From Candidatus Iainarchaeum sp. (GTDB lineage Archaea; Iainarchaeota; Iainarchaeia; JAFGOX01): DNA of 35,191 bases. The notes beneath the pieces are model-generated. The model was not told where the DNA came from. It did no database searches and was given only the letters and a program-made list of their open reading frames with translations. The stretch's first letter is position 1. Each line of letters opens with the position of its first letter. A program made the position numbers and the translations under genes. The DNA is taken from assembly GCA_016926295.1 (NCBI GenBank), contig JAFGOX010000041.1, forward strand, positions 1 to 35,191, in the 5' to 3' direction. Shown here in pieces: positions 1,174-5,063 of this stretch.

Positions 1174-1224
1174 ATTGGGTAAAATATACTGTAAATAGCG
1201 AAAGATTTAGTGAGAGGTGAGTAT

Positions 1225-1503
1225 ATGACAACAAAAACCCATGGGTATAGGTGCAAAACAAGACGCAAATTAAAGAAAAGAGGCCTAACTCACGTAACAG
1301 ACTTCATGAAGGAATTTAATGTTGGTGACAAAGTACTGATCAAGATAGATTCATCAGTGCAGACAGGACACCCGCACCCGAGATTCAACAACAGAACCGG
1401 ATTGGTTAAGGGAATGCAGGGAAACTCATACCTGGTTGAAATTATGGACATCAACAAGAAGAAAACCATGATAGTAAGTCCCATTCATCTAAAGCCACAA
1501 TAA
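1225..1503 (+). CDS. rpl21e: 50S ribosomal protein eL21
   Basis: G.R.KTR..L.K, GDKV.I.IDSS...G.PH.RF...TG.V, P.HLK. GGTGA SD before the ATG at 1225. Confidence 0.96.
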   Translation: MTTKTHGYRCKTRRKLKKRGLTHVTDFMKEFNVGDKVLIKIDSSVQTGHPHPRFNNRTGLVKGMQGNSYLVEIMDINKKKTMIVSPIHLKPQ

Positions 1504-1516
1504 TTGGAGGATTATA

Positions 1517-1888
1517 ATGATTGGCAAGAAAATACTGGACAAGAAATATGTTTCATTACCCGCAGTAATGAAAATGCTAAATGAAAGACTGGGCGAAAAC
1601 GAGCCGAGCTACGAACAGGAGGCTACTTTAAAATATGTGGACAAATTCGCAAAAATAAGCTCCGAAGCAGCTGAAAAAATGGCAAAAGAGCTCATTGACC
1701 TAGGGTTCCTTGATGACAAAGAGGTTGTCAAGGTAATCGACATAATGCCACAGGACTATGATGACATAAATGCCATAGTTCAGAGAAGAACCGGCGTTTT
1801 AGAGACTAGTGACGCACAGAAAATCATAGACATTGTGAAGAAATACGAGAAAGAGAAGCCCAAAAAGAAAGAAACCAAATCCAAATAA
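1517..1888 (+). CDS. rpoF: RNA polymerase subunit F (Rpo4)
   Basis: MIGK..., SYEQ..TL.Y..KFAK, VK.IDIMP. Canonical position after rpl21e. Confidence 0.93.
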   Translation: MIGKKILDKKYVSLPAVMKMLNERLGENEPSYEQEATLKYVDKFAKISSEAAEKMAKELIDLGFLDDKEVVKVIDIMPQDYDDINAIVQRRTGVLETSDAQKIIDIVKKYEKEKPKKKETKSK

Positions 1889-1898
1889 GTGATATATA

Positions 1899-2456
1899 AT
1901 GAAGGAAGAAAATGCATTGGTACTGGACTATCTGCCAGAGGGCAGGTACACTGATTACAAGCGTAATCCCATAGTGCAGGGTCTGGGCACCAGTCGTTTC
2001 ACCCTTCTTGAACTAATCCCAAAAGCAGGAACCAGCTTCGTTAACTTGGAGCAGGTATTTGTCGGAAAGGGAGACAGGGAAAAGATAACTCTTGTGAAAA
2101 GGGTGCTTAAGCCTAGCGAACTTACAAATGAGGCAAAGGCAAATCTTGAACCAGCAGTAGAGAAAATAGTTGATTCAGATATATCCCGATTCCTTAACTT
2201 CTACAACAAGGCCGGTTCACTGAGCGTCAGGCTTCACCAACTAGAACTGCTTCCGTCAATAGGAAAGAAACACGTCCAGAGCATAGTCAAGGAAAGGGAA
2301 AAGAAACCGTTTGAAAGCTTCAAGGAAATATCAGAAAGGATATCCTTATTGCCGAATCCAAAAAGAATAATTATACAAAGAATAATCTCTGAAATAAACG
2401 GAGAGGAAAAATATTATCTTTTTGCCAGACCAATGACCCCGCAAAAGAGGGTTTAG
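1899..2456 (+). CDS. DUF655 family RNA-binding protein
   Basis: EE.A.VLDYLP.G, FTLLEL, R.H.LELLP.IGKK (HhH). Conserved rpl21e-rpoF-DUF655-ksgA context. Confidence 0.93.
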   Translation: MKEENALVLDYLPEGRYTDYKRNPIVQGLGTSRFTLLELIPKAGTSFVNLEQVFVGKGDREKITLVKRVLKPSELTNEAKANLEPAVEKIVDSDISRFLNFYNKAGSLSVRLHQLELLPSIGKKHVQSIVKEREKKPFESFKEISERISLLPNPKRIIIQRIISEINGEEKYYLFARPMTPQKRV

Positions 2457-2457
2457 T

Positions 2458-2682
2458 CTATTTGCTAAACCAACCCTTTTTCTTTGGTTTCTGCGGCGTT
2501 GAAGTCTCAGCATTCATGAAATCCATTTCAGATTCTATCATGTCCATTCTGTCGACTAACTCTTTAACCACATCAGTAAGCCTGTCAATCTGGCTTGCTG
2601 TCATTTTGTCCTTTACTTTTCCAGACTCCAGAGCATTTTTCACTGTGGTAAGTTTTGATTTGAGTTGTTTATAATTTGTCAT
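2458..2682 (-). CDS. small coiled-coil protein with C-terminal KKKGWFSK tail
   Basis: Fills the gap exactly. Strong SD GAGGTGATT and a TTTATAA box upstream. Confidence 0.75.
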   Translation of the reverse strand: MTNYKQLKSKLTTVKNALESGKVKDKMTASQIDRLTDVVKELVDRMDMIESEMDFMNAETSTPQKPKKKGWFSK

Positions 2683-2745: not shown

Positions 2746-3507
2746 ATGGACTTATTATCTGAGCTTTACAAACTGATGATTAAATATCATTTCAAACAGG
2801 GAAAAAGCGAAAAAAGATTTATCCTGATTAATTCTGAAATTCTGAAATCAGTTGCAAAGGACCTGAATGCAAAGAAAGATGAAACTGTTTTTGTCAGATA
2901 TGCAAATGCCGGATTCGCAATAAGAGAGTTAAAATCCAAAATAATTGTTGCAGATGCAGAGCCGTATATAAAAGTTCTCAAGGGCGAACTTAAAAATATA
3001 AAAATTGTAAACCTGTCAGAGAAAGTAAAGGCAGAAAAGCTTCTTGTTTTCCCGCCAATAAACAAAGCAAAGGAAGAAACTGAAATGGCCGCAGTGAGCA
3101 AGGCAACAGCAATACTTCTTTTACCATTAGAGCTTGACCTTGCAATATCCGCATATCCGGGAGAGTATGATTACAGTGCAACCAGCGTGATAATCCAAAT
3201 CCTGTCTGAAATAAAGGAAAAGAAAATTGTTTTGCCCGCGGAATTCTATCCAAGAGCAGAAAGCAAGATGTACCTGATAAAACTAAAACCGAAAAAAAGC
3301 AGCATAAAGGACGCAGATCATTTCAAGAAATTCATTTCCGGACTGTTCAAGTACAAAAACAGGACAATACAGAAGGCGCTAAAACTCGCAAACAAAGAAA
3401 ACAATTGGAAGCTCTCTGATGAAAAAATAGAAAGTGTAAGCTTAGATGAAAAGGTTTTCCTGATAACTCCGAAAGAATTTGAAAAAATATACTGCGAACT
3501 TTTCTAA
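2746..3507 (+). CDS. ksgA: degenerate KsgA/Dim1 (RsmA) homologue, predicted methyltransferase-dead
   Basis: C-terminal half matches KsgA (A.PG..DYS..SV..Q, FYP, F..F...LF.YKN.T...AL, ...LITPKEF) and it occupies the ksgA syntenic slot. GQNF, ExGxG and NLPY motifs are absent. Confidence 0.8.
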   Translation: MDLLSELYKLMIKYHFKQGKSEKRFILINSEILKSVAKDLNAKKDETVFVRYANAGFAIRELKSKIIVADAEPYIKVLKGELKNIKIVNLSEKVKAEKLLVFPPINKAKEETEMAAVSKATAILLLPLELDLAISAYPGEYDYSATSVIIQILSEIKEKKIVLPAEFYPRAESKMYLIKLKPKKSSIKDADHFKKFISGLFKYKNRTIQKALKLANKENNWKLSDEKIESVSLDEKVFLITPKEFEKIYCELF

Positions 3508-5063
3508 ACCTTCATCGGCGTGATTTCAAAGTCCCTGCCGGTGTATTCCTCGATTATCATCTTTTCTATTTCTACCGGATTGTTTGCCTTTGCAAAATTC
3601 TGCGCGTCAAAAAGCTTTGCCTCATTCTCGGCAAATATCTCAAAAAGAATCTGGCCCTTCTTGACCCGCGAACCGTTCATAACATACAACTGAATTCCCG
3701 CCCCTTTTGTTATCGGCGAGCCTGCAATTCGCGCAATTTTGTTCACAGTTCTGTTGTTGATTATCGCCACAGTTCCGTTCTTTTCTGAGCGGAATTCATA
3801 TCTTTGCTTTCCGACAGGTATGTCTTCTGACTTTATATCAGGATTACCGCCCTGCGCCTTGATTATTCTCCTGAACTGAGTCAATGCCTTCTTGTTCTCG
3901 ATTGTCTTTTTCGCAATCTCATATCCTTCGCCCTTGCTGCAATGCCCGGCCATCTCCAGAAGTTTTCCGGCAAGCAGACAGGACTTGTCTGCCAAATCCT
4001 CAAATCTCTTTCCTTCAAGAATTTCCAGAACGTATTTTGACTCAAGCGCCGGCCCTGCCACTCTCCCGACAGGCTGGTCGCCGTCAGTTATCAAAACATT
4101 TACAATTATCCCGACTTTGGCGCCGACTTCCACAAATTTCCTCGCAAGCTCTTTCGCCTCATCCATATTCTTGACTTTGACATGCGGCCCCATAGGAATA
4201 TCTATGACTGCATAAGTCGCTCCAACCGCCAGTTTCTTTGCAAGAACAGATGAAACAAGCTGGCCCTGGGGGTCAAGGGAAAGCGGATGCTCTACTTTTA
4301 TGATCTTGTCATCAGCTGGCGCAAGATTTACTGAGCCGCCCCATATAAGCGCGCCACCGGTTTCGTCAACTATTCTTTTTATCTCGGCAATATTATGCTC
4401 AACCGGCATCAAAACCTCCAACGTGTCTGCAGTGCCGGCTGCTGACGTTATCGCCCTGCTACTAGTCTTTGGCATTATGTAACCCAAAGAAGTCACAATA
4501 GAAACAACAAGGGGAGATGTTCTGTTTCCGGCCACTCCGCCGATCGAATGCTTGTCTAAAATCTTCCTGTGCCCTAATCCAAGACTCTCCCCGCTTTCGA
4601 CCATGTGCTTTACCATTGACACAATCTCATCATCTGTGAAACCGTGATTGTAAACCCCTGCAACAAAATAGGTTATCTCGACCTCGCTCAGATTATTAGT
4701 GCTGATATCATAAATTATCTGCCCTATCTCTTCATCGCTTAGTGTCTCTCCGACCAGTTTCCTTTTTATCGCATCAATGGATTTCGGCTGTTCGGCAACA
4801 GTAATAAAAAGTTTGTCCCCTGTCTTCGAATTAAGCCTTTTCCCAACACTTCCAAATAAGCCTATCTGCTTGGGCTTGACAATTGTCTCTGTTGTGTTGA
4901 CTATTGCGGTCATCACTTTCTGGTTGGATGGATTTTTTATGCGCACACGCGACAAAGTAGGAGCATCAAGCTTTTTTGATGTAATTTCATTAAGGAGAAT
5001 TATTGGCTTGTCCGCATCCATGTCAAGTACCTTTGCTAACAAAGGCAGCTCATAGGTGTTCAT
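3504..5063 (-). CDS. AMP phosphorylase
   Basis: N-terminal extension domain, DKHSIGGVAGN, PKTSSRAITSAAGTAD, WGG.V.LAPADD, AQGG. Confidence 0.95.
   Translation of the reverse strand: MNTYELPLLAKVLDMDADKPIILLNEITSKKLDAPTLSRVRIKNPSNQKVMTAIVNTTETIVKPKQIGLFGSVGKRLNSKTGDKLFITVAEQPKSIDAIKRKLVGETLSDEEIGQIIYDISTNNLSEVEITYFVAGVYNHGFTDDEIVSMVKHMVESGESLGLGHRKILDKHSIGGVAGNRTSPLVVSIVTSLGYIMPKTSSRAITSAAGTADTLEVLMPVEHNIAEIKRIVDETGGALIWGGSVNLAPADDKIIKVEHPLSLDPQGQLVSSVLAKKLAVGATYAVIDIPMGPHVKVKNMDEAKELARKFVEVGAKVGIIVNVLITDGDQPVGRVAGPALESKYVLEILEGKRFEDLADKSCLLAGKLLEMAGHCSKGEGYEIAKKTIENKKALTQFRRIIKAQGGNPDIKSEDIPVGKQRYEFRSEKNGTVAIINNRTVNKIARIAGSPITKGAGIQLYVMNGSRVKKGQILFEIFAENEAKLFDAQNFAKANNPVEIEKMIIEEYTGRDFEITPMKV

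Follow-up and report, generated by a model that had tools for sequence, protein, structure and literature searches.

KsgA/Dim1 is described as the one ribosome biogenesis factor common to almost all life (PMC8997704). While on the small subunit it occupies the interface and blocks premature joining, and in eukaryotes pre-rRNA processing needs the presence of Dim1/DIMT1, not its catalysis, according to the accessible text of PMC5699541. In Haloferax volcanii, release of KsgA is reported to depend on catalysis, S-adenosylmethionine (SAM) and methylation; the E84A mutant remains on the 30S subunit with or without SAM, and its overexpression worsens motility (PMC7897474). The E. coli E66A mutant is deleterious even alongside the wild-type protein, and dead KsgA stays bound in this species, as the initial annotation of the present locus had stated, the engineered mutants being locked on 30S (PMC3534330). 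Since engineered dead KsgAs are trapped or harmful, a naturally dead KsgA would be a trap unless its binding or its release had changed.

Another case is Nanoarchaeum equitans, which was correctly cited in the initial annotation as lacking the enzyme. In the accessible text of PMC5389701, this archaeon lives without RsmA/Dim1 or the methylation, its helix 45 is nevertheless unchanged, and sRNA-guided 2'-O-methylation is proposed as a substitute checkpoint.

The two roles of KsgA have so far been separated with engineered mutants, and it is a long-standing question whether selection preserves KsgA methylation or the physical presence of the protein on the small subunit. No description of retained dead archaeal KsgA orthologues was found in the literature, subscription journals and bioRxiv supplements lying outside the coverage of the search. 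Knüppel et al., in their accessible text, note nothing beyond the absence of the enzyme from "some additional nano-sized archaea" (PMC7897474).

The ksgA slot and its eroded motifs

The window, that is, the whole stretch of 35,191 nucleotides that was analysed, is contig C2 of a 592,378-base genome assembled in 52 contigs and estimated to be 79% complete; the size and gene content of this genome suggest a DPANN-like archaeon. The ORF of interest (2746..3507, plus strand) encodes 253 amino acids from an ATG start, and the preceding in-frame stop lies just three codons upstream. It follows a TBP gene on the minus strand and then, on the plus strand, the genes for L21e (1210..1503), Rpo4/F (1517..1888) and DUF655 (1899..2456), all assigned by Pfam; the order of the latter three (1210..2456) is common to relatives. 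Downstream, a convergent AMP phosphorylase gene (3504..5063, minus strand; TIGR03327, 571.7 bits against a cut-off of 535), also present downstream in many relatives, overlaps the ksgA stop by 4 nt with its own. The order L21e-Rpo4/F-DUF655-KsgA is the usual position of ksgA in archaea. The same three genes lie ahead of the KsgA homologue in 37 of 39 genomes whose loci were inspected, and the 19 genomes with eroded copies are all among the 37; the two exceptions are G003, whose contig begins at the gene, and G037. The window has the same order, and the ORF is the positional orthologue of archaeal KsgA/Dim1: a full-length, intact reading frame occupies the ksgA slot, as first noted.

Family profiles recognise only part of this protein. 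Pfam RrnaAD (PF00398) matches amino acids 118-230 alone (E 2.7e-11, score 43.5 against a cut-off of 24), and the TIGR00755 match (amino acids 120-249) reaches 52.5 bits against a cut-off of 171, short of a full-length curated match. Pairwise HMMER alignments span nearly the whole protein, covering amino acids 15-226 with Methanocaldococcus jannaschii Dim1 (E 1.4e-9) and 6-215 with Pyrococcus horikoshii DIMT1 (E 2e-8). The latter numbering, taken from the depositors' mutants D117A, N132A and Y135A in the PDB titles, was read off the alignment.

All of the motifs considered below lie on the plus strand. In the HMMER alignments, G-Q-x-F (G-Q-H-F in P. horikoshii), whose Q and F are 93% conserved among 104 homologues, is replaced by K23-R24-F25-I26 (2812..2823). 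The initial annotation had read this motif as EKRF in place of GQNF; the replacement stands and the register was one residue off, the aligned residues being KRFI. The SAM loop of motif I, E-x-G-x-G-x-G (E-V-G-P-G-L-G in P. horikoshii), is absent and reads V50-R51-Y52-A53-N54-A55-G56 (2893..2913), just as originally reported, in the alignments to both archaeal enzymes. The Glu has become Val, the first two glycines Tyr and Asn, and only the third glycine, G56, is kept, at positions where the Glu is 88% and the glycines 92%, 94% and 97% conserved among the 104 homologues. The motif II acidic residue, equivalent to E. coli E66 and H. volcanii E84, is conservatively changed to Asp70 (2953..2955) where 98% of homologues have Glu. 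In the motif III region, N89-L90-S91 (3010..3018), the Asp corresponding to P. horikoshii D117 is replaced by Ser91, after which four residues are deleted.

Motif IV, N132-I133-P134-Y135 in P. horikoshii, reads F102-P103-P104-I105 (3049..3060) and matches neither N-(L/I)-P-Y nor the x-P-P-Y typical of the class. The reading FPPI made at the outset was right, but NLPY is not the local ancestral state. None of 20 same-class relatives with otherwise intact motifs has Asn at the N132 position, and 19 of the 20 have x-P-P-(Y/F), where x can be L, S, A, F, I or C. Because the intact relatives lack the Asn too, what sets the present protein apart in motif IV is the replacement of Tyr by Ile, and the active-site rules of the clade are unusual.

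The C-terminal half is a different matter. The conserved stretch matched by PF00398 (amino acids 118-230; 3097..3435) takes in the last part of the Rossmann domain and the C-terminal RNA-recognition domain. Of those columns of alignment A1 in which the 104 homologues, counted without the present protein, reach 80% conservation or more, it keeps 8 of 11 in amino acids 118-253 against 4 of 13 in amino acids 1-117, which bears out the earlier remark that the C-terminal half is well conserved. A basic motif, K204-N205-R206 (3355..3363), is present in the C-terminal domain and aligns to R-R-K of P. horikoshii DIMT1, with a conservative Lys to Arg change at position 206. It is probably the archaeal equivalent of E. 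coli 221RRK223, which together with R248 binds h24/h27 (PMC8216452). The net charge of the N- and C-halves does not differ informatively between eroded and intact KsgAs. Overall, the erosion of the catalytic motifs in this protein is confirmed and lies far beyond chance.

Predicted fold, gene copies and helix 45

AlphaFold2, run with alignment A1, returned a model with mean pLDDT 96.3, pTM 0.90 and no segment below 50, a confidence that owes part to the intact homologues in the input alignment. The predicted strands and helices are ordered as in a Rossmann-like domain with a helical domain after it, so that the N-domain and the C-terminal RNA-recognition domain are both present in the model. 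The best Foldseek match in the PDB is P. horikoshii DIMT1 (8x3w; E 4e-19, TMq 0.85), followed by M. jannaschii Dim1, bacterial KsgAs, eukaryotic Dim1/DIMT1 in pre-ribosomes and TFB1M; the top 50 matches listed are all KsgA, Dim1, DIMT1 or TFB1M. Structure prediction, proposed as a check of the annotation, thus gave a KsgA-like model.

The protein therefore resembles archaeal KsgA/Dim1 (8x3w, and M. jannaschii Dim1 3grr/3fyc) in its two-domain fold (TMq 0.85 and 0.72), its near-full-length alignment, its gene slot and its conserved C-terminal domain with the basic F-x-x-(K/R)-N-(K/R) motif. It differs from them in that its SAM loop is replaced, as are the Asp of motif III and both the Asn and the Tyr of motif IV, and its identity to the solved structures is only 22-24%. 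Cofactor and catalytic residues are lost while the fold, judged by model and alignment, is kept. Lacking the defining cofactor and active-site motifs and scoring below the equivalog cut-off, the protein is filed as a KsgA-derived pseudoenzyme and not under the 16S rRNA dimethyltransferases.

PF00398 and TIGR00755 searches of the whole 79%-complete genome revealed no second ksgA. A weak PF00398 match (E 0.006) to a 316-amino acid protein on contig C24 was rejected as a second copy, the protein being a generic Methyltransf_25 member. G001 (87% complete), the sole further genome of the order, likewise carries an eroded KsgA copy only. The search for a backup, suggested at the start, thus revealed no intact copy in either genome.

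The presumed target is unaltered. The 16S rRNA gene, which has an intron, is assembled, and its 3' end has a normal helix 45 with the canonical GGAA loop and its two adenosines, A1518/A1519, at which KsgA enzymes form m6,2A, another point on which a check had been advised, as well as the anti-Shine-Dalgarno tail. The loop is GGAA in all 28 class genomes compared, of which 11 carry an eroded KsgA, 15 carry an intact one and two (G029 and G017) yielded no KsgA. The stem hardly varies; in the present genome it shows one compensatory change of a C-G to a U-A pair. An altered helix 45 in the eroded lineages was accordingly rejected, loop and stem being alike in every KsgA state. Comparison of the 16S 3' end with two metatranscriptome runs and one DNA run, as contigs that are blind to reverse transcription stops, gave only 31-nt conserved pieces in one RNA run and none in the other. 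For the ksgA locus itself, no RNA dataset containing it is listed. Taken together, the KsgA-like fold, the lost motifs, the lack of a detectable second copy and the canonical helix 45 uphold the initial view that KsgA is kept here as an apparent pseudo-enzyme.

Scarcity of the cofactor was considered as a driver of the erosion. Searches for both types of SAM synthetase came up empty in this 79%-complete genome. The idea was rejected, since the archaeal SAM synthetase is present in G001 and in all eight genomes of genus g6 of family f3, all of which have eroded KsgA. The same enzyme was not found in any searched family with intact KsgA.

Relatives, selection and loss in the class

A word-indexed search of 5.8 billion protein clusters returned nothing but the protein itself, and phmmer over 1.84 billion representatives yielded 135 proteins at E <= 1e-3. 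The nearest relatives, P0002 (of the G001 type) and P0003, are 34% and 31% identical, none exceeding 34%; identity to the G001 homologue is 33% in each half. K23, R24, Y52, F57 and P103 are invariant across the three proteins. The sharing of such derived residues by proteins of 31-34% identity indicates that the apparently dead state predates their divergence.

All 215 genomes of the class were surveyed with TIGR00755; 124 scored above the cut-off and most others near it. Only weak matches were seen in families f3 (14 of 14 genomes), f17 (7 of 7), f16 (3 of 3) and f11 (2 of 2), in genus g17 of f7 (6 of 6), and in f1 and f2. Alignment revealed full-length KsgA-like proteins with differently eroded motifs in f3, f16, f7-g17, f12-g55 (genome G138), f1 and f2; in the first four groups they occupy the same slot, and the acidic residue of motif II persists in most of the eroded relatives. 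Twelve of the 14 f3 genomes have the eroded copy, as do all four f7-g17 genomes aligned.

Other lineages appear to have gone further. For f17, f11, f18, f20, f25 and f35-g75 (13 genomes), the profile search for KsgA, which covered 26 genomes, gave only Rossmann-part matches to other methyltransferases. The slot was inspected in four genomes without detectable KsgA. In G177, DUF655 is followed by a 55-nt gap and the convergent AMP phosphorylase gene, amounting to a clean excision; in two f17 genomes, a 253-amino acid ORF, RIO-kinase-like by eye, comes after DUF655, and in G017 an unrelated ORF does. A split enzyme was also considered. ORFs of about 210 amino acids in f3 and f11 match PF00398 (positions 14-122, E 1e-9 to 1e-11) and carry GQT(I/T)SQPS, which we take to be the signature of protein-L-isoaspartate O-methyltransferases; they were rejected as a detached KsgA N-domain.

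In a maximum likelihood tree of 39 homologues, the eroded state needs four changes, of which the starred branches force at least two. G138 nests inside the intact f12 proteins with support 97/93. The eroded proteins are long-branched, the present one having 1.27 substitutions per site against a median of 0.46. Taxonomy alone calls for at least three erosion events, two of them nested in families with intact members and a third accounting for the rest.

An estimate of dN/dS across relatives had been recommended, and it was made by the Nei-Gojobori method (NG86) for those eroded lineages that are close enough to measure. The pair G048/G049 (f16-g26) gives 0.155 for the N-half and 0.11 for the C-half at dS 0.6-0.8, and G011/G019 (f3-g6) gives 0.079 and 0.082 at dS 1.2-1.5. 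For f7-g17 pairs the values are 0.21-0.35 and 0.18-0.46 at dS about 0.5-1.4; intact KsgA pairs at similar distances range from 0.08 to 0.33. With dN/dS of 0.08-0.46 in both halves, the eroded KsgAs of f16, f3 and f7-g17 are maintained genes under purifying selection, N-domain included. The window's own lineage is saturated, its nearest relative being 34% identical, and yields no value. The case for retention there is made by an uninterrupted frame, derived residues in common with relatives and a confidently predicted fold, and it is stronger than the case for decay. Of the two readings offered in the initial annotation, a non-catalytic factor or an intermediate on the way to loss, long retention is hence the better supported for this protein; the loss series exists at the level of the class, in the families without KsgA and the G177 excision.

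It is quite possible, although we advance this tentatively, that within the class KsgA turned catalytically dead at least three to four separate times, was then long retained under purifying selection and was finally deleted in further lineages.

Possible docking without methylation, and other readings

The single KsgA/Dim1 orthologue detected in this genome is probably a long-retained, non-catalytic 30S-binding factor. Judged from the residues at its former active site, it has likely lost methyltransferase activity and would no longer bind SAM or accommodate the flipped adenine; because Asp70 is kept, a nucleotide may still be bound to some degree. Docking on the late pre-30S subunit is proposed because K204-N205-R206 and most of the conserved columns of the C-half are kept: the C-terminal domain may still bind at helices 45, 24 and 27. 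The docked protein would then act as a chaperone or checkpoint without chemistry, shielding the subunit interface, and both adenosines of helix 45 would remain without methyl groups, like those of N. equitans. Binding would be by the C-terminal domain alone and release by spontaneous dissociation or displacement by later factors, with no methylation trigger. The engineered mutants, whose adenine pocket is intact, would lock onto the flipped base. In the present protein the pocket is eroded too, in the stacking Tyr and its neighbours, so its binding is probably more transient than that of the single-site mutants.

This putative factor would share with E66A of E. coli, E79A of Staphylococcus aureus and E84A of H. 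volcanii a methylation-incompetent state in which the fold and the RNA-binding domain are kept. Unlike it, those mutants each carry a single substitution, at the motif II Glu; they cannot leave the 30S subunit and do harm in E. coli and H. volcanii (PMC3534330; PMC7897474). Here, by comparison, the change is natural and old, the motif II acid is kept as Asp, and the SAM loop and adenine pocket are gone. The likeness to eukaryotic Dim1/DIMT1 would be that presence in pre-ribosomes is needed rather than methylation (accessible text of PMC5699541); the difference is that those proteins are still active enzymes, while this one appears to have given up catalysis. The genome resembles those of N. 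equitans and N. acidilobi in its tiny size, its GGAA helix 45 loop with presumably unmethylated adenosines and its C/D-box machinery, but differs in retaining the protein, RsmA/Dim1 being entirely absent from both of these archaea. One further study has reportedly assigned a non-catalytic function to DIMT1. Since fibrillarin and Nop5, of the C/D-box machinery, and a RIO kinase are encoded, the sRNA route around helix 45 proposed for N. equitans may be open to this archaeon.

METTL14-type pseudo-methyltransferases and mtTFB-type relatives of KsgA have lost SAM and motif IV residues while their methyltransferase fold lives on as a scaffold for binding RNA, and the initial annotation had drawn the mtTFB analogy. 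It is a resemblance only, and nothing points to a role in transcription: no catalytic partner and no transcription link is evident here, and TFB1M is only a structural match. KsgA-family members have been recruited to transcription, and repurposing of the present protein outside 30S maturation, as some other RNA- or DNA-binding or regulatory factor, could be read from the long branches, which suggest a changed constraint, from the new basic pair K23-R24 conserved in the three-member clade, and from the TFB1M chains among the structural matches. We nevertheless judge it unlikely: the gene stays in the ribosome/RNA-polymerase cluster just like an intact ksgA, preservation is best in the C-terminal RNA-recognition domain and its basic motif, helix 45 is unchanged, and no new domain or partner gene is seen. 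A still-active adenine methyltransferase, mono- or dimethylating helix 45 with SAM in an atypical pocket, is slightly less likely still. Side chains at the SAM-loop glycines of class I methyltransferases clash with SAM, and here Tyr and Asn stand at the first two of them, positions 92% and 94% conserved in the 104 homologues; also gone are the Glu of motif I, the Asp of motif III (where the deletion lies), motif IV's stacking Tyr and the GQ pair. Such an enzyme would account for the full retention of the fold at high confidence, for Asp70, G56 and the P-P of motif IV, for the intact target loop and for the equal conservation of the two halves relative to G001, and the intact KsgAs of the clade already do without the motif IV Asn. 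Strong divergence compatible with activity is also known from Dim1 of Sulfolobales, about 200 amino acids long and hard to recognise in spite of which m6,2A is made (PMC8481954, accessible text).

Least of all do we expect a functionless remnant heading for deletion, with the open frame as a transient survivor. Several families of the class have no detectable KsgA, one of them with the clean excision of G177, and KsgA is reported to be dispensable for growth in model archaea (PMC7897474). Against this stand a frame of 253 codons without stops at a genomic G+C content of about 40%, the derived residues common to relatives of 31-34% identity, the confident fold, and, in other lineages, purifying selection on eroded homologues in three cases and family-wide retention of the eroded copy in f3 and f7-g17.

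If a non-catalytic 30S-binding factor is indeed what has been retained, these archaea would be able to release KsgA from 30S without methylation. Because dead KsgA remains on the 30S and is harmful in E. coli and Haloferax, such proteins should reveal how binding and release are uncoupled from methyl transfer. Genome surveys that call ksgA present from Pfam matches would overestimate the range of m6,2A. The class would offer a natural series from intact through dead-but-retained to absent KsgA, in which the binding or checkpoint role outlives the chemistry. Natural, long-retained dead orthologues would, if this is true, give an evolutionary answer to the question of what selection preserves, one that favours the presence of KsgA on the small subunit.

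Surroundings of the ksgA-like gene

The ksgA-like gene (window 2746..3507, plus strand) and the AMP phosphorylase gene converge, their 3' ends sharing 4 nt (window 3504..3507). This convergent pairing recurs in many relatives. On its other side, the ksgA-like gene is separated from DUF655 by a gap of 290 nt containing an antisense ORF of 74 codons (window 2458..2682, minus strand). In the 38 relatives examined, DUF655 adjoins ksgA directly and a homologue of this ORF is absent from the slot. The predicted polypeptide has no significant Pfam match; its C-terminus is rich in Lys and, by eye, it appears helix-rich. It may represent a small lineage-specific gene, or the reading frame may be open by chance.

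Where KsgA is undetectable, the content of the slot varies among the four loci inspected. In genome G177 (locus L123, G177:C17), only 55 nt lie between DUF655 and the convergent AMP phosphorylase gene, a clean excision of ksgA. DUF655 is followed by an unrelated 300-aa ORF in G017 (L124, G017:C62) and by a 253-aa ORF in two genomes of family f17, G046 (L125, G046:C5) and G041 (L126, G041:C31). Judged by eye, the latter ORF looks RIO-kinase-like.

SAM synthetase and the 16S rRNA gene

A search of the whole G000 genome, from which the window derives, found neither the archaeal (PF01941) nor the bacterial (PF02773) type of SAM synthetase. A survey of 41 relatives for the archaeal type detected it solely in G001, the order-mate of G000, and in 8 of 8 genomes of genus f3-g6.

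The 16S rRNA gene of G000 (L063:1501-3740, corresponding to G000:C1:8755-10994, minus strand) measures 2240 nt versus the 1478 positions of the model. It encloses, on the rRNA strand, a 245-aa LAGLIDADG ORF (L063:2209-2946; PF14528, E 4e-14). The insert presumably represents an rRNA intron encoding a homing endonuclease. In G013, a genome of family f3 (L122, G013:C14), the anti-Shine-Dalgarno tail reads CAGCTCC, versus CACCTCC in the other genomes compared. This tail sits at the extreme end of a contig, and the change could be an assembly error.

Motif IV in the intact KsgA proteins of the class

Motif IV of classical KsgA reads N-(L/I)-P-Y, and its Asn is retained in other database hits. Alignment of the 20 KsgA proteins of this archaeal class with otherwise intact catalytic motifs (relatives G003-G040, L035-L056) reveals this Asn in none of them. 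Nineteen carry x-P-P-(Y/F), where x is L, S, A, F, I or C, while the remaining one, from G012, reads F-I-P-Y. The L114P mutant of E. coli KsgA (NPPY; PDB 3tpz) is reportedly altered in mono- versus dimethylation. Taken with that effect, the missing Asn in the aligned sequences suggests that this clade may modify helix 45, the 16S rRNA target of KsgA, differently.
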